From contig JBJMMA010000180.1 in NCBI GenBank assembly GCA_045805065.1, positions 1 to 30,957 on the forward strand: 30,957 bases of DNA, read 5' to 3'. The notes below the pieces were generated by a model. That model was not told the origin of the DNA, made no database searches, and worked only from the letters and a program-made list of their open reading frames with translations. The DNA comes from Bdellovibrionia bacterium (GTDB lineage Bacteria; Bdellovibrionota; UBA1018). This document shows, piece after piece, positions 13,884 through 30,578 of the stretch (within the stretch, counting starts at the first letter, position 1; every line of letters starts with the position of its first letter). A program made the translations under genes and the position numbers.

Positions 13884-14291
13884 GAGGACTCCCTAAAGTT
13901 GGTGTAATAAGATTTGGTGTCTCTGGAGCAGCAATGCAAAAGATAAACCTGCACGTCAGGCGGCCTAAGGCTTTGCCTTCACGCCTGGAGAGAGAATCGC
14001 GCCGTTAATTACTGCCTCACTCAGCACACATAAGAGCAGGAAGACTCTACTTGCAACTCCTCATGCACGAGACGGGTAATTCGACAATTCGTCAAAATCC
14101 AGCAAGCTGGTTTGGACATAAAATTGCAACCCATAACGTATTGTGCCAATAGTTTGTGTACGAATGGCAGACACCCCTCTGAATCAAGCCACTAGTAACT
14201 CATTTTATGTAGGTGTTTCAAAGCGCTTAACTCTTGTGCGCTCGGTCCAAGAGTTTGAGTTCTTCGCTTGCGTTACCTCGGGGAGGCTTTA

Positions 14292-17200
14292 ATGTCCTTG
14301 GGGTCTCAAAGCCGGAAGCGGCCCTTGATGTGCGTTGTCGCAATAGGTGGTTCGGCCGGTGCTCTTGAGTCCTACGAACGCTTTTTCCGGTCTCTTCCAA
14401 CGGATATTGCGGCTTCGTTTGTTGTCATCCAGCACATGCTTCCCAATCAAAAAACCTTGATGCCAGAGCTGCTTTCTCGTTGGACAAAACTCCCAATCGA
14501 GATCGCAAAGACAGGTGTCGTCCTTCAGCCGGGACATGTGTACGTCAGAGAGCCAGGCGTTCAACTCGAGCTTCAGGGAAATCAGTTTTTGAGCCATCGC
14601 TCCGAGAAGGCAGAACGCGAAGACCGCGTGATTGATTTCTTCATGAAATCTCTGGCCACAAACATCGGAGCACGATCCATTGGTGTGATTCTCTCGGGGA
14701 CAGGCGCGGATGGGACCAATGGCCTGCGCCAGATCCGAGCATGGGGAGGCAGGACGCTGGTTCAGGATCCTTCTGAGGCGAAATTTGACGGGATGCCGGA
14801 AAGTGCCATTCTGGCTGGAGTCACGGATCGGGTGATGCCAGTGGAAAAACTGGCCAGGGAGCTGAGTAGTTTCATTGAATGCACCCCTGTGATCGTGTCC
14901 GAGAAGGAACAAGCCTCGGAACTCGACAAAATATGCGAGATTTTGCGTAGAAAGACAGGACACGATTTCTCATCCTACAAAAAGGGGACGGTGGCTCGTC
15001 GCGTGGAAAGGCGGGTTCAGGCGAACCTCTTTTCGGAATTGACATCATACATCGAGTTTCTTGAGCAAGACCCTGCTGAACCTAAAGCTCTTCTTCGAGA
15101 CCTGCTCATCAGCGTGACTCAGTTTTTCCGAGATCCAGAGGCATTTGCGACAATCCGTGATCATGTCATTCCGAATCTGTTCGAGAATGTAAGTAGCAGC
15201 GATTCAGTTCGAGTCTGGGTCCCGGCCTGCGCAACCGGTGAAGAAGCTTATAGCATCGCCATTCTTCTTCGCAATTACCAGCAAGCGAAATGTCCTCATG
15301 TCAGCATCCAGATCTTCGCCACCGACGTGGACCGCGCAGCACTCGAGTACGCAAGGCAGGGCGTCTATCCGCCTTCCATTGAAAACCAGGTCCCTGTGGA
15401 AGAATTGGCCCGCCATTTTGAGAAGTATGAGAAAGGCTATCGGATCTCAGAAAGTCTGCGGGGAATTTGTATATTCTCGGAGCACAGTCTTCTTAAGCAT
15501 CCGCCTTTCTCGAAAATCGATTTTGTTTCCTGCAGGAACCTCTTTATCTACTGGGAGCCTGAGCTGCAGAACAAGATTATTCCCGTCTTTCATTATGCTT
15601 TGAACCCGGGAGGGTTCTTGTTTCTGGGTTCTGCCGAAAGTATCGGGGCGGCAAGTGATTTGTTCATGGTTGTTGACAAAAAGCACCGAATCTACAAACG
15701 AATTGATAATATCTCACGCAATTATCCATTTCTGCCGTTCGCCAATGCCATGACTCGTGCAGCCGCACCGATCGATATCATCCAGCGAACTCAGGGATCA
15801 GGGGAGCGCGATCCTGGCAAGTCGATTACTGCCGCGCTGCTCGAAAACTACGCTCCTCCGGCGTTTGTTGTCAGCGATATGGGGGAGATTGCTTATTTTT
15901 CAGGACAAACCTGGAAATACCTTGAGCCTGCCACGGGCGTTCCCAGTAACAATATTTTCGATTTGATCGCTCGTCCACTGAGGGCGGAGCTTCACGCGCT
16001 ATTGCATCTTTGCGTCAAAGATAAAAAAGAAACATTACATGAGGGCCTGCTTTTCGAAAGAGCAGGACTTGTGCAGAGGCTGAATCTTGCGGTCAAACCC
16101 ATGGCCGATCTGGCACATGATCCCGGTCTCTATCTTATCATATTGCAGGAGGTCGCGACTCCTCAGTCCAGGGACGAAGCAATGCGCGAAGGGGTGCGGC
16201 TGTCCAACGAAAATGCGATCGTTCAACAGCTCGAAGAAGAGCTTCGTGAGACTCGCGAGCGGCTCCAAAGTACCATCGAGGAAGTGAAATCCTCCAATGA
16301 AGAGCTCCTTTCCATGAACGAGGAGCTCCAATCAGCCAACGAAGAGCTTCAGACTTCGAAAGAAGAACTGCAGTCGATGAACGAAGAGCTTGAGACCGTG
16401 AACGCCGAGCTTGCTCAAAAAGTGGAGGAGCTTGACGCCTCCAATAGCGATCTGCAAAATTTCTTTCGCGGTACGCAGGTTCCCATACTTTTTCTGGATC
16501 GAGAGTTTCGAATTCAGAAATTCACTCCGGCGGCCATCAAAATTTTTCGCCTCATTCCGACGGATTTGGGACGAGGAATTCTCGATATTACCACTTTGCT
16601 TGAAGACGCCGACATTGTTGGAGACGGCAACCGGGTACTGGAAAATCTCCAGCCGATAGAGCGTGAATTACGCATGAAGGACCAGAGCGCAGTCTATCTC
16701 ATGAGGGTCGGTCCATACCGAACCATCAGCGATGTCATTGCCGGTGTGGTTGTCGCTTTTTCTGACATCACAGAAATCAAGAAGGCTCAGGAAACGCAGA
16801 GGACTCTTGCCGCCATCGTTGAATCCAGCTCGGACGCAATCGTAGGGCGCGATCTCAAGGGAAATGTGACCTCCTGGAATGCGGGTGCCGAGAAAGTTTT
16901 TGGCTTTAACGCGCGTGAAGCGGTCGGAAAGCCGATCACCTTGATTATTCCTCCGGATAAGCTCGAGGAGTTCCGCCGGCTGGAGCACTTGGTTCTTCAG
17001 GGCGAATCTGTAACGAACATCGACACAGAGCGGGTTCGCAAGGATGGGCGACGGATCTCGGTCTCCAAAACTATGTCGCCGGTTTGCGACGAGAAGGGCA
17101 AGATCATCGGACTTTCGGTCATTTATCGCGATATTTCAGATAAGAAGCGCGCAGAGGTTGAAAGCGCAAGGCTTGCGGCTATCGTCGAGTTCTCAAATGA

Positions 17201-18248
17201 TGCGATTGTCAGCAAGACTCTGACTGGAATCGTTACCAGCTGGAACGAGGCTGCCGCGGAGATGTTTGGGTATTCAGCCGACGAGATCGTGGGCAAGTCG
17301 ATCACTACAATAATTCCAAAAGACAGGCTCCACGAAGAGGATATGATCCTAACATCAATTAGCCGGGGGGAACCCATCCAGCATTACGAAACGGTGAGGC
17401 GCCGAAAGGACGGCGTTTTGATCAACGTTTCCGTGTCTGTTTCGCCGATCAAGAATGGCGAAGGCAAGATCATTGGGGCCGCCAAGATCGCACGCGATAT
17501 CACTCTTCAGAAAAAGACCGAAGCAGCCCTCCGGGAAGCGCTGAGAGTCCGGGATGAGTTCCTGTCGATTGCCTCTCATGAGCTGAAGACGCCGTTGACC
17601 TCGCTGAAGCTGCAGGTTCAGATGAGAAAGCGGCGCCTGCAGGCAGGGGATGAATCGGCGTTTTCAATGGAGAAACTCCGAAATCAAGTTGAGGGCGATG
17701 AGCAGCAAATCCTGCGGATTGCCCGGCTTATCGATGACATGCTCGATATTACGCGGATCAACACGGGGAAGCTGGCAATCCGCCCTGAGCCTTTCTTACT
17801 CGATGAGGTGGTGAGGGATGTGGCGACAAGGTTTCATGAGCAGCTGGTCCAAGCTGGAAGCACGCTCGAATTGGATATTCGCTCTCCTGTGCATGGCCAA
17901 TGGGATCGCTCCAGAATCGAGCAAGTGGTTTCGAACCTGATCAGCAACGCCATCAAGTACGGTGCTGGAAAGCCGATTCTGGTGAGAGTCGAGTCAGATG
18001 ACCGGTACGCCATGCTCACTGTTCAAGACCAGGGGATTGGCATCGCGAATGGAGACCAGGATCGCATCTTTGAACGGTTTGAAAGAGCGATTTCCATGAA
18101 TGAAGCCACAGGACTGGGGCTTGGGCTTTATATTGTAAAAGAAATTCTGGAAGCTCATGGGGGCACGATCCGGGTCGAAAGCGAACTTGGTAAAGGATCG
18201 CGCTTTATTGTGACGCTGCCTCTGGATGCTAAAGGACCATCGGTCTAA
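14292..18248 (+). CDS. CheB methylesterase-CheR methyltransferase-coiled coil-PAS-histidine kinase hybrid
   Basis: CheB S/H/D motifs (IGGSAG, IQH, GADG); CheR VTQFFRD, PACATGEEAYS, SCRN; NEELQS heptads; two AIVE.S.DAIV PAS domains; HELKTP H-box, NAIKY, DQGIGI and GLGLGL. GGGAGG precedes ATG 14292. Confidence 0.92.
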   Translation: MSLGSQSRKRPLMCVVAIGGSAGALESYERFFRSLPTDIAASFVVIQHMLPNQKTLMPELLSRWTKLPIEIAKTGVVLQPGHVYVREPGVQLELQGNQFLSHRSEKAEREDRVIDFFMKSLATNIGARSIGVILSGTGADGTNGLRQIRAWGGRTLVQDPSEAKFDGMPESAILAGVTDRVMPVEKLARELSSFIECTPVIVSEKEQASELDKICEILRRKTGHDFSSYKKGTVARRVERRVQANLFSELTSYIEFLEQDPAEPKALLRDLLISVTQFFRDPEAFATIRDHVIPNLFENVSSSDSVRVWVPACATGEEAYSIAILLRNYQQAKCPHVSIQIFATDVDRAALEYARQGVYPPSIENQVPVEELARHFEKYEKGYRISESLRGICIFSEHSLLKHPPFSKIDFVSCRNLFIYWEPELQNKIIPVFHYALNPGGFLFLGSAESIGAASDLFMVVDKKHRIYKRIDNISRNYPFLPFANAMTRAAAPIDIIQRTQGSGERDPGKSITAALLENYAPPAFVVSDMGEIAYFSGQTWKYLEPATGVPSNNIFDLIARPLRAELHALLHLCVKDKKETLHEGLLFERAGLVQRLNLAVKPMADLAHDPGLYLIILQEVATPQSRDEAMREGVRLSNENAIVQQLEEELRETRERLQSTIEEVKSSNEELLSMNEELQSANEELQTSKEELQSMNEELETVNAELAQKVEELDASNSDLQNFFRGTQVPILFLDREFRIQKFTPAAIKIFRLIPTDLGRGILDITTLLEDADIVGDGNRVLENLQPIERELRMKDQSAVYLMRVGPYRTISDVIAGVVVAFSDITEIKKAQETQRTLAAIVESSSDAIVGRDLKGNVTSWNAGAEKVFGFNAREAVGKPITLIIPPDKLEEFRRLEHLVLQGESVTNIDTERVRKDGRRISVSKTMSPVCDEKGKIIGLSVIYRDISDKKRAEVESARLAAIVEFSNDAIVSKTLTGIVTSWNEAAAEMFGYSADEIVGKSITTIIPKDRLHEEDMILTSISRGEPIQHYETVRRRKDGVLINVSVSVSPIKNGEGKIIGAAKIARDITLQKKTEAALREALRVRDEFLSIASHELKTPLTSLKLQVQMRKRRLQAGDESAFSMEKLRNQVEGDEQQILRIARLIDDMLDITRINTGKLAIRPEPFLLDEVVRDVATRFHEQLVQAGSTLELDIRSPVHGQWDRSRIEQVVSNLISNAIKYGAGKPILVRVESDDRYAMLTVQDQGIGIANGDQDRIFERFERAISMNEATGLGLGLYIVKEILEAHGGTIRVESELGKGSRFIVTLPLDAKGPSV

Positions 18249-20292: not shown

Positions 20293-21111
20293 ATGAGCAC
20301 ATCCATGGGGCCGGCGCCTCTAGCAAACGCAACACCCGAAGAACTGAGAAACGTCCGAGGCGTCTGTCTCGATATCGATGACACGCTCTCCACGCACGGA
20401 AAGCTCACGGCCGAAGCCTATACGGCGCTCTGGAAGCTCAAGGAAGCTGGCTTCTATGTCGTGCCGATCACAGGCCGCCCCGCTGGATGGTGCGACCACT
20501 TTGCGCGCTTCTGGCCAGTGGATGCGATTGTGGGCGAGAACGGCGCGTTTACGTTTTTCATGCAGGATGGTGTGAGAAAGCGCATTGATACGCCGGCGCA
20601 AGACACGCCTCAGGCTTTGAAGCTGAGACTCCAGAAGCTTGCCGAGAAGATTCGCGCGCGTTTTCCGCATGCCCGCTGGGCATCCGATCAGGACTACCGC
20701 GAGTATGATCTTGCGATCGACTTTTGCGAAGACGTTCCAACCTGGCCGCAGGCGGATGTGGAAGAGCTTTTGAAGCTTTGCCATGACGATGGCGCGCACG
20801 CCAAGCTCTCGAGCATCCACGTCAATACCTGGTTTGGGGATTACGATAAGAGAAAAGGCTTTGAGCACTGGCTCTTGAAAGCTGGCGTGGCACCGAAAGG
20901 AGCACCTGGCTGGGATCAGTGGCTTTTTATCGGCGATTCTCCAAACGATGAACCGATGTTTGCCGCTTTCAAATACACCGTGGGCGTCGCCAATCTCAGC
21001 AAGTATCTCTCACGCCTCAAGAATCCTCCGCGCTGGATCACATCGCACGAAAGCGGCGCGGGCTTTGCCGAGATGGCTGAAAAACTGATCGCAGTTCACA
21101 AAGGTTTGTAA
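20293..21111 (+). CDS. HAD-IIB family hydrolase
   Basis: DIDDTL, ITGRPAGW, GENG, KLSSIHVN, GDSPNDEPMF and GVAN; start moved to ATG 20293. Confidence 0.88.
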   Translation: MSTSMGPAPLANATPEELRNVRGVCLDIDDTLSTHGKLTAEAYTALWKLKEAGFYVVPITGRPAGWCDHFARFWPVDAIVGENGAFTFFMQDGVRKRIDTPAQDTPQALKLRLQKLAEKIRARFPHARWASDQDYREYDLAIDFCEDVPTWPQADVEELLKLCHDDGAHAKLSSIHVNTWFGDYDKRKGFEHWLLKAGVAPKGAPGWDQWLFIGDSPNDEPMFAAFKYTVGVANLSKYLSRLKNPPRWITSHESGAGFAEMAEKLIAVHKGL

Positions 21112-24070: not shown

Positions 24071-24898
24071 ATGGATCATTTTTCGCTCGAAGGGTTATCG
24101 TGGGAGTTGTCGGTTTTATCCAAAGCCGTGGCTTACAAGAATCTTTCTGGAGCCGCGCAAAATGTCGGCATCAGCCAGCCGCAGCTTTCCCGAATTGTTG
24201 GAAAGTTGGAAACAGAGCTCAGAGCCGTACTCTTGGATCGTGGCGCGCGAAGAAAATCGGGTTGGACTCCGCTCGCATTTCAGCTCGCTGAAGTTTATCT
24301 CAAATCGGTTCGCGGATTGAACTCCGACGTTCAAAAGTTGATTGAGGGAAATGAGCCAAGGCTTCTTCATATCGGAACGCTGGAAGGACTCATTCAACTT
24401 GCCGTGAAGTTCGGCAATCATATTCTCACTCAGACCGGCATCGAAACCATTGAAGTGAACGTTTACGATCTCAACGTTCTTGAAGAGAAATTTTTCAAAG
24501 GTGATCTGGATGTGATTTTCACGGCTCGTGAGCCGGGCCGAAAGAAATATCAGTACAGCAAGCATCTGGGTTACCAGTCACTTGAGCTGGTTGAGAGCTC
24601 AGACAAGTTTCGCGTGATGAGCTCTTTTGAATTTGGCGTCTCTGAAGTGAAAGGCGCGCGCCAAAGCAAAAGCAAAAAAAGCGAAGATCAGGGGCCAAAA
24701 ACGATTATTAGTAATTCGCTCGCCGTGCGTCGCCAGTGGATGGAGTCCTGGGGGGGGATCGGCACTCTTCCATCTCCTGTCCGCTCTTTGAAAAAAGCGG
24801 CCGCAACCTCATACAAGGTCGTCGAAGAAGACGATGTCTACCTTTACGCGCAAGACTACCTCAGCTCCGCTCTCTGGGAGAAAGCTGCCAAGTTCTAA
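24071..24898 (+). CDS. LysR family transcriptional regulator (divergent effector domain)
   Basis: NLSGAAQNVGISQPQLSRIVGKLETEL..LLDR HTH motif. Confidence 0.85.
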   Translation: MDHFSLEGLSWELSVLSKAVAYKNLSGAAQNVGISQPQLSRIVGKLETELRAVLLDRGARRKSGWTPLAFQLAEVYLKSVRGLNSDVQKLIEGNEPRLLHIGTLEGLIQLAVKFGNHILTQTGIETIEVNVYDLNVLEEKFFKGDLDVIFTAREPGRKKYQYSKHLGYQSLELVESSDKFRVMSSFEFGVSEVKGARQSKSKKSEDQGPKTIISNSLAVRRQWMESWGGIGTLPSPVRSLKKAAATSYKVVEEDDVYLYAQDYLSSALWEKAAKF

Positions 24899-25142
24899 CC
24901 AAAAGGTGGTCGCCTCCTTTTTGTAGTGACGCCGCGTCAAAGTCCGGAAAGCGAACAAATCACCGCGTGAATCAAACTGAGTTAGAAACCGAGCCGTTCC
25001 AGGCAGGATGCCGTCTGGGAACTGTGACAGGATGTCACAGCGAGGCTTTCTAACTCAGTTTGATTCACGCTGTGATTTGCTCACGTTCGGTGACTTATGA
25101 CACATCTGCGCTACAAAAAGGAGGCGACCACCTTTTGGTTAG
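24895..25142. repeat. Nested palindromic REP/REPIN-like element, copy 1
   Basis: Perfect 32-bp terminal IR (24895-24926 / 25111-25142), 33-bp inner stem (24956-24988 / 25047-25079, 1 mismatch) and a core with two GGA-loop hairpins. Confidence 0.9.
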
Positions 25143-25465
25143 GCAGCCTTTTTCCGCTTTTTGTCTTCCGGAAGCTGTGTGTTTCCTTTGGCGACAGGCT
25201 GCTCTCCAGTTCCGGCTTGGTCCTGATCTGCATGGTCGCTGATGCGCTCGTCTGCGTCTTGGAAGTTGTCATCTTGCTCAGACAGGGGAGGCGTAATCAG
25301 GCTTCCCTGGTCAGGCCGAATTCGTCGAATGCTTGGATCGCCTTGCCCAGGAATGCTGTGCCTGTTTGCCAGCTCGTCTTTCTTTGGATCGACGATTCCG
25401 CTGTCGTGGGCTTCTCGTTCAAGACCTATCAACTTGTCGTCAAATTTCTTTTCTGCGTTTGCCAT
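25139..25465 (-). CDS. Small hydrophilic hypothetical protein
   Basis: 108 aa from ATG 25465 (MANAEKK..), Asp/Gln/Lys-rich, ends KKRKKAA; its stop codon lies inside the element's IR. Confidence 0.55.
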   Translation of the reverse strand: MANAEKKFDDKLIGLEREAHDSGIVDPKKDELANRHSIPGQGDPSIRRIRPDQGSLITPPLSEQDDNFQDADERISDHADQDQAGTGEQPVAKGNTQLPEDKKRKKAA

Positions 25466-25499
25466 GCTTTGAGAGCGTGCAATTGACGCACCTGCACTG

Positions 25500-25524
25500 C
25501 CAAAAGTAGGCGACCACCTTTTGG
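25500..25524 (-). repeat. Solo REP-like end motif
   Basis: CCAAAAGTAGGCGACCACCTTTTGG, the reverse complement of CCAAAAGGTGGTCGCCTACTTTTGG; self-complementary ends. Confidence 0.85.
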
Positions 25525-25552
25525 GTTTTGGCCGAATTGCCGATAAGGAAGT

Positions 25553-28030
25553 GTGAAACTTCGGTCCTTTTTTCAAAACTTGGCGATCATCGGTGGGGCT
25601 TTTTGGAGCCTATGCCTTTGGACTGCCGTTGGTTTTTCTGCTGCTCAGCCTTCTGCGCTCGAGGCTTTGGACCGAATCGCTGAAAAAGCCGGAAGCCTGG
25701 ATGGCTTTCTCAACAGCCCGCAGATCCAGGACGAGTATTTTCACGCGCTCGCAAAGTACTATGGCGAGAGTCGGTTTCCGCGTCAGTCGTTTGACGTTAT
25801 TCTGGGTCAGATAAAAGATCTCGTCGCCAAAGTTCCCGAAGCGAAGGAGAGAATTTGGAGACGGCTGCCGTCGCATGACCCTTCGGTCATTGAGACACTT
25901 GAAGCTCCTGAAGGTGTGCAGCTCCATGCTGAAGGCTGGCAGAAATATCAGTCGCATTGGACTGACCAGCTGAAGAAAGATTCTGAACCCATTCGTGCGC
26001 TTCCGTCTGAGGAAGCTCGTCTGGCTGAGGTGAATCGGCTTTTTTCGCGTTTAGGCAAGCGCGTCCAGGACTTCAACTTGAAATTGAAGTCATCGGGCGT
26101 ATCCAGGCGCGTGCAAGAAGCTCAAAGCCGTGAGTTTTTCTTGAGCCTTCGCAATGATGCCGACTTTAAGAAGGCGACTTCCTATCTTGTGCTGGAGCAA
26201 ATTCAGCATGGAAAAATCTCGGAGTACTTTCATTCGTCCGACCCGAGTCTGGTGCTTTACGGGTTAGAAGAACTGCAAAAGCTTCAAGCGCCAAAGGGAA
26301 TTGAGATCCCTGATTCGCTTCAATCGCTCTTGAAGCATGCATCGCCATCTCCTGAGTCGGTTCTGACTGACTCGAATGTTTTTCATTTACCAAAGCCTGA
26401 AAAAGGCGAGCGATCGGGACGCGCGCTCAAGGCGCAGAAATGGATTTTTCGGGAGCCCCCAAGGCTTCTGCATACTCTCTGGAGAGGTTTGCCTTTGAAT
26501 GAGTGTGTAGGCGGCTCCTGCAAATGGCTGGATGAAACGACTGCTCGTCGCTGGGCGGTAAGTTTGCTTGAAGGCGCGCAGATTCAGTATCTCGAGCGAG
26601 GCGATCACTTTTTAGGATACGTGCAATCAGTTCCCGCGCAGCTTGGCAGCAAGCGCGTGGCCTCTTTGGAAGTCATGGCGCCGGACATGAAAAGAGTTGC
26701 GCTGACTCGCAGTGGTGATGGAGCGGCTTATTCCTCAAAAACCCTGTTTAATGCCTGGTACTCGACTGCCGTGAAGCGGTTGCCTGAAGGAACCCGAGGA
26801 TTTGCTATCGGAAATGCAGAGGGCTTTCATAACGGAAATGGTTACGCGGGTATTTATAGCAGCGGTGCTTTTATCCAAGGAAGCGAGATCGGGTCTTCTG
26901 CCGAATTCATACCCGTCGATGTGAAGTTTGAGAAGAAAGTCGCAAAGTCTGCGCCAGGCGGTGATGTCGCAAAACGATATGGCGGTCCCGATCGAATGAT
27001 TTTTGAAGGACGCGATCTCAACACCGAAATTTTGACCCTGCTGAATCCAGATTCAACATCATCGGATGAAGCTGTGCACTCCGTAGAGGCTGCGAAAGCG
27101 ATCATAAACGGGCCTGTAGAAGGTGAAGGCAGGCTTCTCGCTTCTTTAGCTTTTCAAGAATGGTCACCCGAAATGAACGAGTTGCTCAAGAAAGAGCGCA
27201 AAGTCATCTTGGAAGCATTAAGAAATGAGGACTTACCCGCTCACAAAAGCGCAGTTGAACTGATCAAAAATGCAGTGCCGAGAGCGTTATATACTTTGTT
27301 TAAGAGCGGATGGAATGAACCCGCGACCGCAAAAGAATTTCAAATGCTTGCTGAAGAAGCGAAGTTGTTCATGATGTATCGAAAGAATGTGAAGCGCGTG
27401 ACTACTCCGCTGGGGGATGTGTTTGAGGAAAGGCTAATTCCGTTTTTGAGCAAAAAGCCAAGCTTGGATGAAATTCGAATGGTTCGAAATGCGATGCGAG
27501 AGGCAAGATCAGGCGAATTAGAAATATTATTTATGAAAGAGGCGCTGAAGCGAGTTTCAAACCCGCGGGGTTTTGTTCATATTCTCAATGTGAATGCAGA
27601 AGGTAGTTTGACTCAAGTTTACTCTAAAATGTTTAATGAGTTCGTTCACGAAGTGATGCCAAATCTTCTTCAGTTGAATCCAAGCCCTGAAGACCTGTTC
27701 ATCTTTATGCATTACAATGGAAAGCATCTCGACATCACCAATCTGGAAAGTATCACCCGCGAAGGGCTTCAAAGAGCTAAAACCGCGGATGACTTCATCG
27801 CGTTCGCTACCTTCAATTTTAAGAATCCACTCTCTCAACGAGAGAGTGAGCTTAGGAAAAAACTTATTCAAGAAAACGCCGAGACCTTTCTAAAGCTGCA
27901 TCCAAGCCGAACTCAAAAAGTCATCCTCAACTCATTTGCTCACGATTCCTTCGGACGGCGCGACCTTTTAGACGCCGTACGTGCGGCCCCAGCCTGCATC
28001 GTGCGCTTCATAAAATATCGATTTAACTAA
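25553..28030 (+). CDS. Large orphan secreted protein with C-terminal 74-aa helical repeats
   Basis: 825-aa ORF, GTG start after AAGGAAG, signal-like N-terminus; no confident family assignment. Confidence 0.75.
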   Translation: MKLRSFFQNLAIIGGAFWSLCLWTAVGFSAAQPSALEALDRIAEKAGSLDGFLNSPQIQDEYFHALAKYYGESRFPRQSFDVILGQIKDLVAKVPEAKERIWRRLPSHDPSVIETLEAPEGVQLHAEGWQKYQSHWTDQLKKDSEPIRALPSEEARLAEVNRLFSRLGKRVQDFNLKLKSSGVSRRVQEAQSREFFLSLRNDADFKKATSYLVLEQIQHGKISEYFHSSDPSLVLYGLEELQKLQAPKGIEIPDSLQSLLKHASPSPESVLTDSNVFHLPKPEKGERSGRALKAQKWIFREPPRLLHTLWRGLPLNECVGGSCKWLDETTARRWAVSLLEGAQIQYLERGDHFLGYVQSVPAQLGSKRVASLEVMAPDMKRVALTRSGDGAAYSSKTLFNAWYSTAVKRLPEGTRGFAIGNAEGFHNGNGYAGIYSSGAFIQGSEIGSSAEFIPVDVKFEKKVAKSAPGGDVAKRYGGPDRMIFEGRDLNTEILTLLNPDSTSSDEAVHSVEAAKAIINGPVEGEGRLLASLAFQEWSPEMNELLKKERKVILEALRNEDLPAHKSAVELIKNAVPRALYTLFKSGWNEPATAKEFQMLAEEAKLFMMYRKNVKRVTTPLGDVFEERLIPFLSKKPSLDEIRMVRNAMREARSGELEILFMKEALKRVSNPRGFVHILNVNAEGSLTQVYSKMFNEFVHEVMPNLLQLNPSPEDLFIFMHYNGKHLDITNLESITREGLQRAKTADDFIAFATFNFKNPLSQRESELRKKLIQENAETFLKLHPSRTQKVILNSFAHDSFGRRDLLDAVRAAPACIVRFIKYRFN

Positions 28031-28302
28031 AAGGTGGTAAAAGGTGGTCGCGTACTTTGCCAAAGGTGGTCGCCTCCTTTTTGTAGCGCACCCGCAGCAG
28101 AGTCCGAAAGGCGAACAAAACAAAACGAGTAGAGAACTCAGATAAAAAACCGAGTCGTTCCCAGGCAGGACGCCGACAGGGAATGTGACAGGATGTCACA
28201 ACGAGGGTTTTTATCTGAGTTCTCTACTCGTTTTGTTTTGCTCACGTTTCAGTGAATGACGCGTGTGCGCTACCAAAAGTACGCGACCACCTTTTGGTTT
28301 AG
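28027..28302. repeat. Nested palindromic REP/REPIN-like element, copy 2, with stacked left-end motifs
   Basis: 20-bp IR 28039-28058 / 28276-28295, GTAGCGCAC / GTGCGCTAC, perfect 33-bp stem 28116-28148 / 28208-28240, and a near-identical two-hairpin core. Confidence 0.9.
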
Positions 28303-30578
28303 TAGCGCTGGCGCATGAGGAAGGTGATGACTTCCTTTGCGCACTTGTCGCAGTAGCCGAAGCGCTTCTTCATATTGCTGACGGTGAGGCGAGCCAGCTG
28401 GGCGCCCTCGCTGTCGGCTTTTCCGTTTGAGATGAGCGCTTCTTCAAGGTCTGCATCGGTATTGGCGTTGTAGACAAGAAGGGCGTCATGCATCTTGCTG
28501 AGCGTGGATTTCTGAGATTCGAAATAATGCTTCTCAAGCTTACGCCAGAAGTCCGGGAAGACTTTCGGGTAAGAGACAGGTTGGTTCGGGTGATCCAGAG
28601 ACCAGGCGCCGATCTGGGAGATGATGTTCTGGCGGAAGGCTTCTTTGGCTGAAGCGTCTTCTGGAGCCTCGACAATCTTTTCAAGCTCGTTGATGAGAGC
28701 AAAATCCGGATCTTCCATTTTACCGGTGATCTGGTTCTTCTGCTTTTCCTTCTTCAGAACAAGCGAGATCTGTTGGACGTATTTTTTGAGGAAATCTTCC
28801 CATTGAACAGAGTTATAGAGACCGATCGAGTCGCGGACTTCGCGATCAGCGGTGTTCAGATACTCCGTGCGCGCGGTGGTGATGAACTCGTGCGCGTCGT
28901 GAAAGCCATCCTTCACGTCCTGCTTGAGGAACTCGTATTCGCTGACGCGTTTGACGAATTCTTCCATCTCTCTCAAGACCGCAAGAGGCGAGAGGCAGGG
29001 GAACTCTGGGTTTTGAGCGGCGTCAAAGAGAATGGATTTCATCTCGCGAGCCGATGCGCCCATTCGTCCTTCGTAATAAGGAATGTTCGAATACTCTTCC
29101 CTGAGGCGGCGGATCGAGGCCTTCAGAAGCTTGCGATCCTCAGGCGAGAGCTGCGCAGGGATTTCACCCGTATCGTAAAGGCGAGCTTTCTCAAGCGGCG
29201 TGAGGTTTGCGACAATCGTGCTCACATTCGGTGAGTAATTGATGCTGTTTGGCTTCTTGAGGCGGGTCAGAACGGCCCAGAGAGCCACGGTTTCTGCCAC
29301 GTGCGGAGCAATGTGCTTGTCGCTTGAGAATTGATCGAGCTGCGAAGAGTAGATCTCTTTCTCAGCGCTGACTTGAAGGAGGTAAGGCACGCGGATGAGC
29401 TCGATGCGGGCCTTGAAGCTGATGAAGTCAGGGAACTCCTTGAAAGCATCCAGCTGGATCTCGTTCGTCGATCCCAGCATTACCGCATCCAGATACGCAA
29501 TACTTGAGCCAACGTTCACGGAGCCTGTTTCACAAGCGGTCAGGAGATACTTGAACGTATCCACAGGGCGCTTGAGAAGATCGGAAAATTCAACGATGCC
29601 GCGGTTGGCGTCAACCAGGTCTCCAGTGAGCGAGAAAAGATTCAGCCCCTGAAGAGAGGAGGGCAGTGCCGACATGCTGCGATTGTAAGTGAGCTGGTGA
29701 TACTGAGCATCGACATGCATCTGAGGCTCAATCGTGACAAGACCTCTGCGATATCTGCGAGCGTAGAAGAAGCGCTCGATCTGAACATGCATGAGCACTT
29801 TCTTGAAATCACCGTTATTGCTGGTGAGAAGCGCATCGAAAATCTCGCGATCGCGATGAGCCAGTTCACCGTTTTTGAGATAGTGAGGAAGCGTTTCCCA
29901 AAGCTCATTCGCTTTTTGCGTACCGATCATCTTCTCTAAGAACTGTTTACGTTGCTCTTTAGGAACGATCAGAAGCGGATGGTCTCGCAAATCCGATGGA
30001 ATGCGAGCGGCGATCTCTTCGTCCGGAAGCTTGGCGTAGCTCTGCACAGGCTCCTTGGGAGAGCCGTAGGTCGAATTGATGCCGATCTTGCCTTTGGTGT
30101 AGCTCTCCAATGGGAAAACCCAGCTGAAGGTGTAGACTGCGCCTTCGCTTTCGTTGGAGTAGCGCTCCATTCCGCCCATGAGAGCGTGAATGAGAGAGGT
30201 CTTTGCGCTGCCATTCGGGCCATGCAAAAGAAGAAGGCGATTGTTGAGGCCTTGGCGCGTGAAAGTTCTCAGTGCGCGATAGATCTGGTTCTGAACGACT
30301 TCCTGGCCAACCACTTTTCTCGCAAGGCCGTCCGCAGGGAAATCAAAAAGTTTGAAGCGCGGGGCGGAAGCTCCTTCCACCTCTTCACGTCCAAAGTGAT
30401 CCATCATATCTGCCATGTAGCGAGCTGATCCGCGAAGCTGTCTTTCGGGATGCTCTGCCATCAAGTGCAGGTATTCATCGAAGGAGAGAATCCGCTTATG
30501 GGATTCAAAATCCTTTCGAATAGATTGATCGATCGATCCGATGATTTCGCCAGCCGAGAATGTGCGTCCGTTCGCCAT
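28299..30578 (-). CDS. prkA: PrkA/YeaG family AAA+ ATPase (annotated serine protein kinase)
   Basis: LLLHGPNGSAKTS Walker A-like, DHPL, GDLVDANRGIVEFSDLLK, GASAREM and GYC..CAKEVI C-terminus. Confidence 0.88.
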   Translation of the reverse strand: MANGRTFSAGEIIGSIDQSIRKDFESHKRILSFDEYLHLMAEHPERQLRGSARYMADMMDHFGREEVEGASAPRFKLFDFPADGLARKVVGQEVVQNQIYRALRTFTRQGLNNRLLLLHGPNGSAKTSLIHALMGGMERYSNESEGAVYTFSWVFPLESYTKGKIGINSTYGSPKEPVQSYAKLPDEEIAARIPSDLRDHPLLIVPKEQRKQFLEKMIGTQKANELWETLPHYLKNGELAHRDREIFDALLTSNNGDFKKVLMHVQIERFFYARRYRRGLVTIEPQMHVDAQYHQLTYNRSMSALPSSLQGLNLFSLTGDLVDANRGIVEFSDLLKRPVDTFKYLLTACETGSVNVGSSIAYLDAVMLGSTNEIQLDAFKEFPDFISFKARIELIRVPYLLQVSAEKEIYSSQLDQFSSDKHIAPHVAETVALWAVLTRLKKPNSINYSPNVSTIVANLTPLEKARLYDTGEIPAQLSPEDRKLLKASIRRLREEYSNIPYYEGRMGASAREMKSILFDAAQNPEFPCLSPLAVLREMEEFVKRVSEYEFLKQDVKDGFHDAHEFITTARTEYLNTADREVRDSIGLYNSVQWEDFLKKYVQQISLVLKKEKQKNQITGKMEDPDFALINELEKIVEAPEDASAKEAFRQNIISQIGAWSLDHPNQPVSYPKVFPDFWRKLEKHYFESQKSTLSKMHDALLVYNANTDADLEEALISNGKADSEGAQLARLTVSNMKKRFGYCDKCAKEVITFLMRQRY

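Follow-up and report, generated by a model that had tools for sequence, protein, structure and literature searches.

How can both arms of a stem change their sequence while its length and pairing are kept? This question is raised by a contig of a Bdellovibrionia bacterium (JBJMMA010000180.1 of assembly GCA_045805065.1), which was analysed over its full length of 30,957 nt and is referred to here as the window. A preliminary description of this DNA had pointed to a 33-bp stem present in two copies, and its central counts have been borne out by a comparison of the arms. In a gap-free comparison, 12 of 33 positions are unlike between the left arms at 24956-24988 (copy 1) and 28116-28148 (copy 2); their best right-hand partners, also aligned without gaps, are 25047-25079 and 28208-28240, respectively. 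Between the right arms 11 of 33 positions differ, and all 11 are complementary to a left-arm difference, as had been described. The stem is paired at 32 of 33 positions in copy 1 and at 33 of 33 in copy 2. The sole mismatch, and the twelfth left-arm difference, is C24964 opposite T25071 in copy 1; T25071 fits the base found in copy 2, again in line with the description. From this half-step it follows that change begins in one arm and that simultaneous synthesis of both arms is not required. By our own calculation, such mirroring would have a chance of about 3.5e-13 if the arms were independent.

The stems sit within two near-palindromes of about 250 nt (24895-25142 and 28036-28298) that share one plan. 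Inverted end modules of the form A4-GGTGGTCGC...T5-GTAG enclose imperfect sub-terminal arms, the 33-bp stem and a tip, which is a conserved core of 58 or 59 nt with two small hairpins. The features are as follows.

24895..25142, no strand: copy 1, whole near-palindrome, 248 nt (inverted repeats, RNA folds)
24899..24926, + strand: copy 1 left end module CCAAAAGGTGGTCGCCTCCTTTTTGTAG, terminal-inverted-repeat-like or REP-like, with GTAG end (motif count; 93% identity to copy 2)
24927..24955, + strand: copy 1 left imperfect sub-terminal arm (imperfect pairing with 25080-25112; 72% identity to copy 2)
24956..24988, + strand: copy 1 left arm of the 33-bp stem (arm comparison)
24989..25046, + strand: copy 1 asymmetric core, 58 nt (folds; 85% identity to copy 2)
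~24996-25022, + strand: copy 1 core hairpin 1, tip GGCA-GGA-TGCC (folds)
25023-25039, + strand: copy 1 core hairpin 2, TGTGACA-GGA-TGTCACA (folds)
Starts 25004 and 25028, + strand: copy 1 CAGGATG motifs (motif search)
25047..25079, + strand: copy 1 right arm of the 33-bp stem, T25071 unpaired (arm comparison)
25080..25112, + strand: copy 1 right imperfect sub-terminal arm, conserved start CTCACGTT (copy alignment)
25113..25142, + strand: copy 1 right end module, reverse complement of the left module (inverted repeats, motif count)
25483..25533, - strand: solitary end module with adjoining ~20 nt, the singlet (repeat search; blastn 85% over 41 nt)
28036..28298, no strand: copy 2, whole element, 263 nt, oriented as copy 1 (inverted repeats, folds)
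28039..28058, + strand: copy 2 outermost left module, GCGTAC variant (100% complementary to 28276-28295)
28060..28087, + strand: copy 2 second left module, GCCTCC variant like copy 1, local bulged hairpin (folds, alignment)
28116..28148, + strand: copy 2 left arm of the 33-bp stem (arm comparison)
28149..28207, + strand: copy 2 core, 59 nt, with the 17-mer hairpin at 28184-28200 (folds, alignment)
Starts 28166 and 28189, + strand: copy 2 CAGGACG and CAGGATG motifs (motif search)
28208..28240, + strand: copy 2 right arm of the 33-bp stem, 33/33 paired (arm comparison)
28241..28298, + strand: copy 2 right imperfect arm and right end module, GTACGC variant (inverted repeats, alignment)

The window shows signs of a repeat family. 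The end-module motif AAGGTGGTCGC has six exact occurrences against 0.53 expected, all within 24903-28293 of the 31-kb contig; one module is solitary, and there are terminal inverted repeats of 45 nt with 87% complementarity. GTAG stands beside four of the six modules, GCAG beside one, and one has no tag. The modules themselves come in two types. Those of the GCCTCC type can fold locally into a 9-bp stem that contains a T:T mismatch and is capped by a TCG loop; on our reading of the sequence, no local REP hairpin is possible in the GCGTAC type, which pairs solely with its own counterpart. The core has the same orientation in both window copies.

Is the matching change confined to the stem? The consensus fold contains 14 pairs in which both sides have changed: 11 in the stem, one in the core-closing helix and two in the imperfect arms. 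Two further double changes are found in the outer modules, where GCCTCC/GGAGGC of copy 1 corresponds to GCGTAC/GTACGC of copy 2. Compensation spans the whole hairpin and reaches beyond the stem.

Do other copies keep the same length? A third copy was found as a predicted protein, P0127, that translates such an element, and its DNA was inferred from the codons. When the translations of both elements were made into a profile, P0127 was its single match (E = 5.5e-05). The conserved blocks of the window copies recur in P0127, which places a copy in another sequence context. Its arms are 33 nt each, and its codons permit 32 of 33 Watson-Crick pairs; in the pairing control, one residue shuffle in 3000 reached at least 32 pairs, and the best of 3000 random 11-mers had 27. 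The P0127 arm differs from copy 1 at 16 and from copy 2 at 7 of 33 positions, and 16 of the 33 are common to all three copies. The 17-mer hairpin is not kept. The right sub-terminal segment beside the stem varies in length, with 22, 20 and 21 nt in copies 1, 2 and P0127. The fixed 33-bp length claimed for the stem therefore extends to three of three copies, the third as inferred from P0127. Judging from these sequences, stem length and pairing are kept while the sequence drifts, because paired 33-nt arms with at most one mismatch each are present in all three copies despite differences at 7 to 16 of 33 positions. The known copies number three: two lie 3.2 kb apart on one contig, and one is known from protein only. 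A scan of a genome contigs collection found no relatives.

One suggestion of the preliminary description was that the variable stem could be a guide-like segment. Such a guide-like or spacer-like segment would recognise a nucleic-acid target, and the stem is the most variable part of the element, has a fixed length and has conserved sequence on both sides. A search for targets of the arms found none in the window or in plasmid or phage collections. Elsewhere in the window the best arm matches cover 21-22 of 33 positions, no better than shuffled arms (4 of 20 equal that), and neither element matches the plasmid (7.3 Gb) or phage (2.3 Gb) collections at E <= 0.01-0.1. The segment is also wholly sequestered in duplex. 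Since 16 of 33 positions are common to the three copies, the arms are diverged homologues rather than acquired inserts. We regard a guide function as extremely improbable, and this part of the description has gone unsupported.

How is conservation distributed along the element? Copies 1 and 2 are 78.5% identical over 242 nt (blastn), with 64-67% identity in the stem, 85% in the core, 93% in the left end module and 77% in the right end module. The core and the end modules are better conserved than the stem, as had been noted, but the imperfect sub-terminal arms barely exceed it (72-74% identical between the window copies), so that for these two copies the earlier statement on core and ends holds in part only. 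Expressed as divergence, the values are 36% for the stem, 26-28% for the imperfect flanks and 15% for the core; for copy 1 against the inferred copy 3 the stem value is 48%.

These values bear on whether the arms match by concerted evolution purely at the DNA level. One arm would be recopied from the other, either through template switching at the replication fork inside the quasipalindrome or when mismatches are repaired in a hairpin or cruciform that has been extruded, and neither structure nor length would be under selection. Copying fits the fast divergence of the stem, which equals or exceeds that of the flanks and exceeds that of the core, because a copied pair then evolves near the neutral rate. 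The kinds of change point the same way: transversions make up 9 of the 12 stem differences, and purine and pyrimidine are flipped in 5 of the 11 paired changes; a route by way of G:U intermediates would not favour such changes. DNA-parameter folds are also very stable (-89.6 to -97.5 kcal/mol). But mismatches and bulges just outside the stem (GCGAA opposite CTCACG) are shared by both copies and were left uncorrected over the same time. Non-Watson-Crick positions give nine G:U pairs on the - strand against two on the + strand (roughly p = 0.03, a binomial estimate), a one-strand bias that is unexpected from a strand-blind DNA process. The constant 33 nt in three of three copies, beside a flank of 22, 20 or 21 nt, further suggests a constraint on length. 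Concerted evolution by itself is a fairly unlikely explanation. The preliminary description had offered arm copying and selection on pairing and length as alternatives; what it described holds in all three copies, and the data favour neither alternative decisively.

A more far-reaching version of copying would be a new folded-strand element, in which a candidate T-shaped protein-binding tip sits on a 33-bp ruler helix and the arms are regenerated by hairpin-primed fold-back copying as the element propagates. If true, it would be a bacterial counterpart of parvoviral terminal hairpins, and fold-back copying would let the stem evolve at the neutral rate with pairing never lost. We consider this very unlikely.

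Both elements are predicted to fold strongly as RNA. Copy 1 reaches -156 and -159.6 kcal/mol (z = -16.3 on the + strand, -19.6 on the - strand) and copy 2 reaches -140.3 and -146.3 kcal/mol (z = -12.9 and -15.7); no shuffle was as good as either element on either strand (0 of 200 each). The whole-element folds pair left with right modules. The consensus fold is better on the - strand (-90.35 kcal/mol, 73 pairs) than on the + strand (-73.7 kcal/mol, 59 pairs). Across the whole window, only a tRNA-His passes the Rfam 15 gathering threshold. Within 24800-28400, seven matches at E <= 10 are all sub-threshold. They are led by plant miRNA precursors, whose 33 bits fall short of the threshold of 140, and such matches signify generic long hairpins.

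Could the element encode a dedicated structured RNA? Its working tip would be a putative dual site for a CsrA/RsmA-type dimer, and the 33-bp helix a spacer of fixed length. We infer three A-form turns for this helix, which would define spacing and phase relative to the conserved internal loops where the helix begins. CAGGAYG lies at the apex of four of four window tip hairpins (25004, 25028, 28166, 28189), 23-24 nt apart on the + strand; the heptamer occurs 12 times on the + strand of the window and 6 times on the - strand. According to a review (PMC7652899), CsrB repeats carry CAGGA(U/A/C)G in the loops of hairpins, SELEX gave the consensus RUACARGGAUGU, and a CsrA dimer can bridge sites 10-63 nt apart. 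The core is the best-conserved internal part (85%), and the P0127 codons, as we read them, would permit GGA in either loop. A closing stem with two hairpins is also the layout of an unrelated repeat in one MAG (L001, L005, L023, L031), in which CAGGATG is found at both tips in three of four copies and L005 has CACGATG at the first. Several points stand against such an RNA. The strand with the better consensus fold is the - strand, on which the loops carry UCC. The GGA motifs lie in 3-nt loops on stems of 4 and 7 bp, and CsrA binding may be disfavoured when a hairpin is very stable, as the same review indicates (PMC7652899). There are two sites only per element, no promoter was found, no csrA gene is present in the window, and the 17-mer is lost in the third copy. 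On balance, a dedicated regulatory RNA appears unlikely.

Where do the elements lie with respect to genes? Each window copy occupies the gap between the TAA stops of convergent genes, as follows.

24896-24898, + strand: copy 1 left neighbour, TAA stop of a LysR-like gene
25139-25141, - strand: copy 1 right neighbour, TAA stop of a small ORF
28028-28030, + strand: copy 2 left neighbour, TAA stop of the 825-aa gene
28299-28301, - strand: copy 2 right neighbour, TAA stop of prkA

The prkA stop abuts copy 2, and the C-terminus ending in RY is natural, being found in 33 of 33 homologues among the matches listed. The singlet (25483-25533) is placed in a divergent gap, upstream of the small ORF and of the 825-aa gene. 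A MITE of a TA-duplicating transposon (IS630/Tc1-mariner-like) would be bordered by a TA target-site duplication. Both copies are flanked as C-TA|element|TA-G, and excision of the element with one TA would leave CTAG at both sites. IS630 prefers CTAG targets. These TAs, however, open the four TAA stop codons and lengthen the palindrome, and copy 2 is ragged on its left side. A search of 24700-28500 for sigma-70-like promoters found none.

Lying 3.2 kb apart as direct repeats, the window copies have exactly two genes between them: the small ORF and the 825-aa gene, the latter encoding an orphan secreted protein with only three relatives among 5.8 billion proteins. Do they bound a mobile cassette? 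As attC-like or forked-hairpin recombination sites acting as folded DNA, the copies would delimit a 3.2-kb two-gene cassette inserted between the LysR-like gene and prkA. The arrangement would fit, as would the confinement of all end modules to 3.4 kb and the drop in GC to 0.45 at 27-28 kb against ~0.52 elsewhere. But a domain scan found no transposase, RAYT, integrase or recombinase domain among the 21 window ORFs. The elements (248-263 nt) are longer than attC sites (57-141 nt) and have no unpaired central spacer, the RYYYAAC/GTTRRRY outer boxes fit one side only of each copy, and P0127 is a copy in a different sequence context. A cassette bounded by such sites is highly improbable.

What reading accounts best for the locus? 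The one we prefer, with an even chance of being right, is a family of REPIN/MITE-like palindromic intergenic repeats of about 250 bp in an uncultured Bdellovibrionota/Oligoflexia-like bacterium; its members would act as hairpins at 3' ends or as bidirectional terminators. Two inverted end modules of ~45 nt, mostly GTAG-tagged, would enclose a long structured spacer, and single-stranded DNA or a transcript would form one hairpin of ~110 bp with a conserved two-hairpin tip. Since each copy begins directly at the stops of two convergent genes, we propose that it would be transcribed from both sides as their 3'-UTR. The hairpin, set between an A-run and a U-run, could then terminate transcription from either side and block 3' exonucleases. 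The ability to form the hairpin and the length of its helix would be maintained, and the sequence of the 33-bp segment would be free; a change would start in one arm and later be matched in the other. Copying from one arm to the other may contribute to their likeness. What the sequences show is the anatomy, the mirrored differences, the constant 33-nt arms of three copies and the location at gene ends; we infer mobility, transcription, the terminator or stabiliser role and the route of the matching change.

Against the REPIN/MITE-like reading, the stem diverges (36%) at least as much as the imperfect flanks (26-28%) and the core (15%), which is not expected from compensation by selection alone. 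All six exact module motifs lie within 3.4 kb of the 31-kb contig. The spacer from GTAG to GTAG is ~183 nt, and an asymmetric two-hairpin tip is foreign to REPINs. The copies are 78% identical, unlike a recently active MITE.

If the REPIN/MITE-like reading is right, hairpin repeats of this kind extend to uncultured Bdellovibrionota in an unusually large and modular form, with end modules, imperfect arms, a helix of fixed length and free sequence, and a two-hairpin tip. The locus would offer a natural case for asking whether inverted-repeat complementarity is kept by selection on the folded strand or by arm-to-arm copying. The copies are candidates for bidirectional terminators or 3'-UTR stabilisers because they sit exactly at the stops of convergent genes.

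How do the elements compare with known systems? Integron attC sites are imperfect palindromes of 57-141 nt in which structure rather than sequence is conserved, with R and L boxes, an unpaired central spacer, extrahelical bases and an intI gene nearby. The window elements share with them the imperfect palindrome and the placement as direct repeats flanking genes, which for attC are gene cassettes; attC acts as a folded single strand. As a candidate, attC was rejected: the window elements are two to four times longer, the boxes fit one side only, the outer helix is continuous and 0 of 21 ORFs has an integrase domain. Unlike attC sites, the pair also encloses two divergent genes instead of one promoterless ORF. 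The AAV ITR has a long stem capped by two small hairpins in a T- or Y-shaped three-way junction, and flip/flop with hairpin-primed copying keeps its arms complementary. The long stem and two-hairpin cap are similar in the window elements. However, AAV ITRs form the termini of a linear genome of single-stranded DNA; the window elements are internal to a bacterial contig with no Rep-like gene, and their tips share one orientation. In CsrB/RsmZ RNAs, as in the window tips, CAGGA(U/C)G is found at the apex of small hairpins, with two sites within dimer bridging distance; unlike those RNAs, the window elements have two sites in tight 3-nt loops within a 110-bp hairpin, and apparently no promoter or terminator of their own.

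Among MITEs, Correia/CREE, ERIC and bcr1 are described as 100-250 bp long, with terminal inverted repeats, intergenic 3'-end sites and co-transcription (PMC3184786). In the same source, compensatory changes keep the double-stranded RNA structure of bcr1, ERIC-type elements are flanked by 5'-TA-3', and MITE pairs may flank genes, as in IMU (PMC3184786). The window copies resemble MITEs in their terminal inverted repeats (45 nt, 87% complementary), length, intergenic position at 3' ends, TA flanks and gene-flanking pair. They differ in that each flanking TA is at the same time part of a stop codon and of the palindrome, and in the irregular left end of copy 2. A recent MITE with near-identical copies was rejected, the copies being 78.5% identical and the window containing no transposase.

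The likeness to REPINs and GTAG-tagged REP dimers extends to inverted, mostly GTAG-tagged units with tags facing inward, one long hairpin that includes the spacer, solitary remnant units, and sites between convergent genes just downstream of coding regions. RAYTs are single-copy in a genome, and none is present among the 21 ORFs of this 31-kb stretch. GTAG-tagged REPs are reported to be short palindromes with stems of 6-13 bp, loops of 2-3 nt and the GTAG tag left unpaired at one end, to form tail-to-tail dimers with structured spacers of 20-100 bp, and to lie mostly between convergent or unidirectional ORFs (PMC3733652). The window elements, unlike REPINs, have a spacer of ~183 nt, an asymmetric two-hairpin tip and a 33-bp helix; they also depart from the REPs of Di Nocera et al. 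(2013, PMC3733652) in end-module stems that are rich in A/T and contain a T:T mismatch, with one variant unable to fold locally. REPs have been described as both terminators and stabilisers, with raised expression of both genes of a convergent pair (bioRxiv 10.64898/2026.03.23.713779). No new principle is needed for the window elements: length, pairing and compensatory change have already been described for REPIN spacers and for bcr1. In REPIN spacers the sequence is less conserved, and length and hairpin capacity are kept through compensatory changes (PMC3116915). Both kinds of element, as far as the published account of REPIN spacers goes, conserve length and pairing through compensatory changes (Bertels & Rainey 2011, PMC3116915).

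The contig is an ordinary bacterial chromosome, and the window encodes a GH65 phosphorylase, a HAD phosphatase, a molybdate-type ABC transporter, a CheB-CheR-PAS histidine kinase, tRNA-His, a pseudouridine synthase and PrkA. Two near-palindromic elements, here called copy 1 and copy 2, lie 3160 bp apart in the same orientation, each between convergent genes. The features concerned are as follows.

14268-18248, forward strand: fusion of CheB methylesterase, CheR methyltransferase, several PAS domains and a histidine kinase, 1326 aa
19443-19519, reverse strand: tRNA-His (GTG anticodon), the sole RNA gene given by Rfam and ARAGORN in the window
24071-24898, forward strand: LysR-like gene, its stop adjoining copy 1
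24895-25142: copy 1, near-palindrome
25139-25465, reverse strand: small ORF of 107 aa, its stop adjoining copy 1
25483-25533: solitary end module plus roughly 20 nt of the arm next to it (direct-repeat family D2, inverted repeat I4, also found by blastn)
25553-28030, forward strand: gene for an 825-aa protein, its stop adjoining copy 2
28036-28298: copy 2, near-palindrome
28299-30578, reverse strand: prkA, its stop adjoining copy 2

A TAA stop directly abuts an end module in all four cases. No such element is present at the remaining convergent gene pairs of the window, 12130/12139 and 18248/18264. The C-terminus of PrkA (...RY) is the natural end in 33 of 33 homologues among those listed, so prkA has not been truncated by the element. 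Its best named relatives among those listed belong to Oligoflexia, Bdellovibrionales and Bdellovibrionota MAGs (about 65-71% identity). The closest listed relative, P0007, is 94% identical and lies on a 2.7-kb contig, which suggests that a closely related strain is present in public data.

Both copies share a common layout. An end module, CCAAAAGGTGGTCGCCTCCTTTTTGTAG, stands at one end and its reverse complement at the opposite end; next to the module comes a sub-terminal arm, about 29-33 nt long and imperfectly paired, then the 33-bp stem, and finally an asymmetric core of 58 nt in copy 1 and 59 nt in copy 2. The blocks conserved across copies are the end module, GCGAACAAA, the core and TTTGCTCACGTT. 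When each copy was searched against the window with blastn, the matches were the other copy (242 nt aligned at 78.5% identity), its self-complement and some solitary end modules. The module motif AAGGTGGTCGC has six exact occurrences, all between 24903 and 28293, and one match with a single mismatch at 20492; the mean in window shuffles is 0.53 matches. On its left side, copy 2 carries two modules, an inner one of the copy 1 type (28060-28087) and an outer GCGTAC variant (28039-28058), the latter 100% complementary to the right module of copy 2 (inverted repeat I11). The left boundary of copy 2 is irregular because the 10-mer AAAAGGTGGT is tandemly duplicated there (28031-28050), immediately behind the stop codon (TAA) of the 825-aa gene. 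One strand of the end modules also reads AAGGAGG, a strong Shine-Dalgarno-like sequence, and the opposite strand CCTCC (25117-25126, forward strand, and the reverse complement of 24911-24920). Both lie buried in the module hairpin, and no start codon comes at the usual distance.

Identity between copy 1 and copy 2, by segment
Left end module: 93%
Right end module: 77%
Core: 85%
Imperfect sub-terminal arms: 72-74%
33-bp stem: 64-67%

The preliminary description had reported a stem of fixed length whose variation is mirrored between its arms, and this was reproduced exactly. The span it gave (24956-28240) reaches from the left arm of copy 1 to the right arm of copy 2. Between the copies, the left arms differ in 12 of their 33 positions; the right arms differ in 11 of 33, each opposite a left-arm difference and with the complementary base. 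Pairing is complete in copy 2 (33/33) and lacks one pair in copy 1 (32/33), where C24964 stands opposite T25071 and the right arm retains the base that matches A in copy 2. For independent arms, the computed probability of such mirroring is about 3.5e-13. The further statement, that the stem is less conserved than core and ends, is partly right for the two window copies: it holds for the core and the end modules, and the sub-terminal arms are little above the stem. The whole element folds far better than expected, with z from -12.9 to -19.6 relative to dinucleotide shuffles, and none of 200 shuffles was as good in any of the four folds. In the consensus structure of the reverse strand, 14 pairs have changed on both sides with pairing kept: 11 in the stem, one in the short helix closing the core and two in the imperfect arms. 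The corresponding number on the forward strand is 12. The outer modules add two further double changes, GCCTCC/GGAGGC in copy 1 corresponding to GCGTAC/GTACGC in copy 2 (I11). Compensation thus extends beyond the 33-bp stem, and what persists is therefore the long-range pairing of the whole hairpin. In the MAFFT alignment, the register of the stem was shifted by one base.

Which strand would fold? The evidence, drawn from predicted structures, is mixed. The reverse strand has the more stable consensus fold (-90.35 kcal/mol with 73 pairs, vs -73.7 kcal/mol with 59 pairs on the forward strand), and single-sequence folds agree. It also has three G:U pairs common to both copies and six one-sided changes that pair through wobble, compared with two such changes on the forward strand, where each of these G:U pairs becomes an A:C mismatch. 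A rough binomial estimate of this asymmetry gives p of about 0.03. On the forward strand, CAGGATG or CAGGACG is found at the apex of 4/4 tip hairpins of the core, with spacings of 24 and 23 nt. These motifs match the repeat described for CsrB, CAGGA(U/A/C)G, and the spacing falls within the range of 10-63 nt given there for bridging by a CsrA dimer (PMC7652899). Putative binding of CsrA to the tip is a lead only, based on this likeness.

A third copy was sought among proteins. The elements were translated, and protein libraries were searched for spurious ORFs that gene prediction might have called over further copies. The profile built from both reverse-strand translations gave two candidates, none with E <= 10. 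A profile of two forward-strand frames gave one match among 1.84 billion representatives, the 85-aa predicted protein P0127 (E = 5.5e-05). Its residues follow the order of the element: left flank, left arm, core blocks (TEPFQA, PSGNCDR and QRG), right arm, the conserved LT of CTCACG and the right end module (ALQKGGDH). For this copy, the DNA is inferred from the predicted protein. Between conserved anchors, its left arm measures 33 nt and its right arm exactly 11 codons, and the core counts 59 nt. Dynamic programming over synonymous codons showed that 32 of 33 Watson-Crick pairs are possible between the arms; at least 32 pairs were reached by 1 of 3000 shuffles of the right-arm residues, and random 11-residue windows of other proteins reached a maximum of 27 in 3000 trials. 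The inferred left arm is identical in all three optimal solutions and differs from copy 1 at 16/33 positions and from copy 2 at 7/33; 16 arm positions are the same in all three copies. The segment between CTCACG and GCGCTAC is 22, 20 and 21 nt long in the three copies, whereas the arms are constant at 33 nt, so the neighbouring flank varies in length and the stem does not. The mirrored stem is thus real and extends to the third copy: in this single further copy, represented by P0127, neither free variation of stem length nor an accumulation of unpaired substitutions was found. The proposal that the stem acts as a ruler survives on three copies, the length of 33 bp being common to 3/3, one of them read from P0127.

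How do the arms stay paired? One explanation is that one arm is copied onto the other, which would keep the stem paired without selection. Copying could take place through template switching in the quasipalindrome or through repair within an extruded hairpin; a stem pair would then evolve at about the neutral rate. Compensation in steps under selection only is expected to be slow and to prefer transitions by way of G:U. The stem changes speak for copying: transversions make up 9 of the 12 differences, purine-pyrimidine flips account for 5 of the 11 paired changes, and divergence of the stem is no lower than that of its imperfect flanks. However, blind copying does not account for the mismatches that persist in both copies just outside the stem (GCGAA opposite CTCACG), nor for the bias of non-Watson-Crick positions to one strand, and the uncompensated half-step caught in copy 1 argues against copying all at once. 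Because the process is neither blind nor all-at-once, a selected hairpin in a REPIN- or MITE-like repeat is ranked first and copying without selection second. Selection and arm copying may both operate.

The genes enclosed by the two copies may together form an inserted cassette. Between 27 and 28 kb the GC content drops to 0.45. An orphan, the 825-aa protein has three relatives at 48-76% identity and a signal-like segment at its N-terminus. It has no Pfam or NCBIfam family, and in the Atlas no usable feature match and only structure matches with TM <= 0.25. It was considered as the partner of the element and dropped, as nothing connects it to nucleic-acid processing. The 107-aa ORF is acidic and its product is probably disordered.

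Relatives of the element were also sought at the DNA level. An exact scan of genome contigs for the 17-mer pattern of the core hairpin gave 31 loci, and blastn of both copies against them gave eight alignments, none longer than 32 nt and each with the 17-mer at its centre; none of the 31 loci is related. Palindromic 17-mers pick up unrelated hairpin tips, and the pattern is too narrow because the third copy does not conserve the 17-mer. Rfam, at gathering and E-value thresholds, gave no family for the element in the window and none in 20 of the 31 loci. The suggestion that the arms are guide-like is not supported: no arm target was found in the window, and blastn of both elements against plasmids and phages gave no match.

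Four of the loci (L001, L005, L023 and L031, each at 1501-1517 on the reverse strand, with about 150 nt around) belong to a dispersed repeat with at least four copies in a MAG labelled Leptospira biflexa. Its closing stem, GGATTT(T)TGACA.../...TGTCAAATCC, surrounds two hairpins, the second being the 17-mer of the window core. CAGGATG is found at both tips in three of the four copies; the first tip of L005 reads CACGATG. The layout is that of the window tip, with otherwise no sequence similarity. A second CAGGATG hairpin also lies just upstream in L016 (Spirochaetota MAG) and L012 (Christensenellaceae MAG).

A limited search of the literature on palindromic intergenic repeats of Bdellovibrio found no description of the element. 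Readings as a retron, a diversity-generating retroelement, an IS200/IS605 end, a hairpin telomere or a single-strand origin were considered from anatomy alone and set aside: the window encodes neither a reverse transcriptase nor a HUH protein, the element lies inside the contig, and its tip is branched and not a simple loop. E. coli REPs have been described as terminator plus stabiliser, and those between convergent genes as accompanying higher expression of both genes (bioRxiv 10.64898/2026.03.23.713779). Among MITEs, one review describes bcr1, whose double-stranded RNA structure is kept by compensatory changes, ERIC-type elements flanked by 5'-TA-3', and pairs that can bracket genes, such as IMU (PMC3184786). 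Both window copies read C-TA, element, TA-G, and removal of the element with one TA leaves CTAG at both sites. These flanks are suggestive of a TA duplication, but the stop codons and the palindrome itself confound this reading. Of published elements, the REPIN comes closest; its spacers vary in sequence and keep their length and hairpin capacity through compensatory change (PMC3116915). GTAG-tagged REPs have stems of 6-13 bp, loops of 2-3 nt and an unpaired GTAG; their tail-to-tail dimers enclose structured spacers and are found for the most part between ORFs that are convergent or unidirectional (PMC3733652). The window modules fit loosely: GTAG adjoins four of the six, and those of the CCTCC type have a 9-bp stem with one T:T mismatch and a TCG loop. 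The window spacer is about 183 nt, as against 20-100 bp in GTAG-REP dimers (PMC3733652), and the conserved branched tip is not a REPIN feature. The element is most likely a new, large form of the known class of palindromic hairpin repeats at convergent gene ends.
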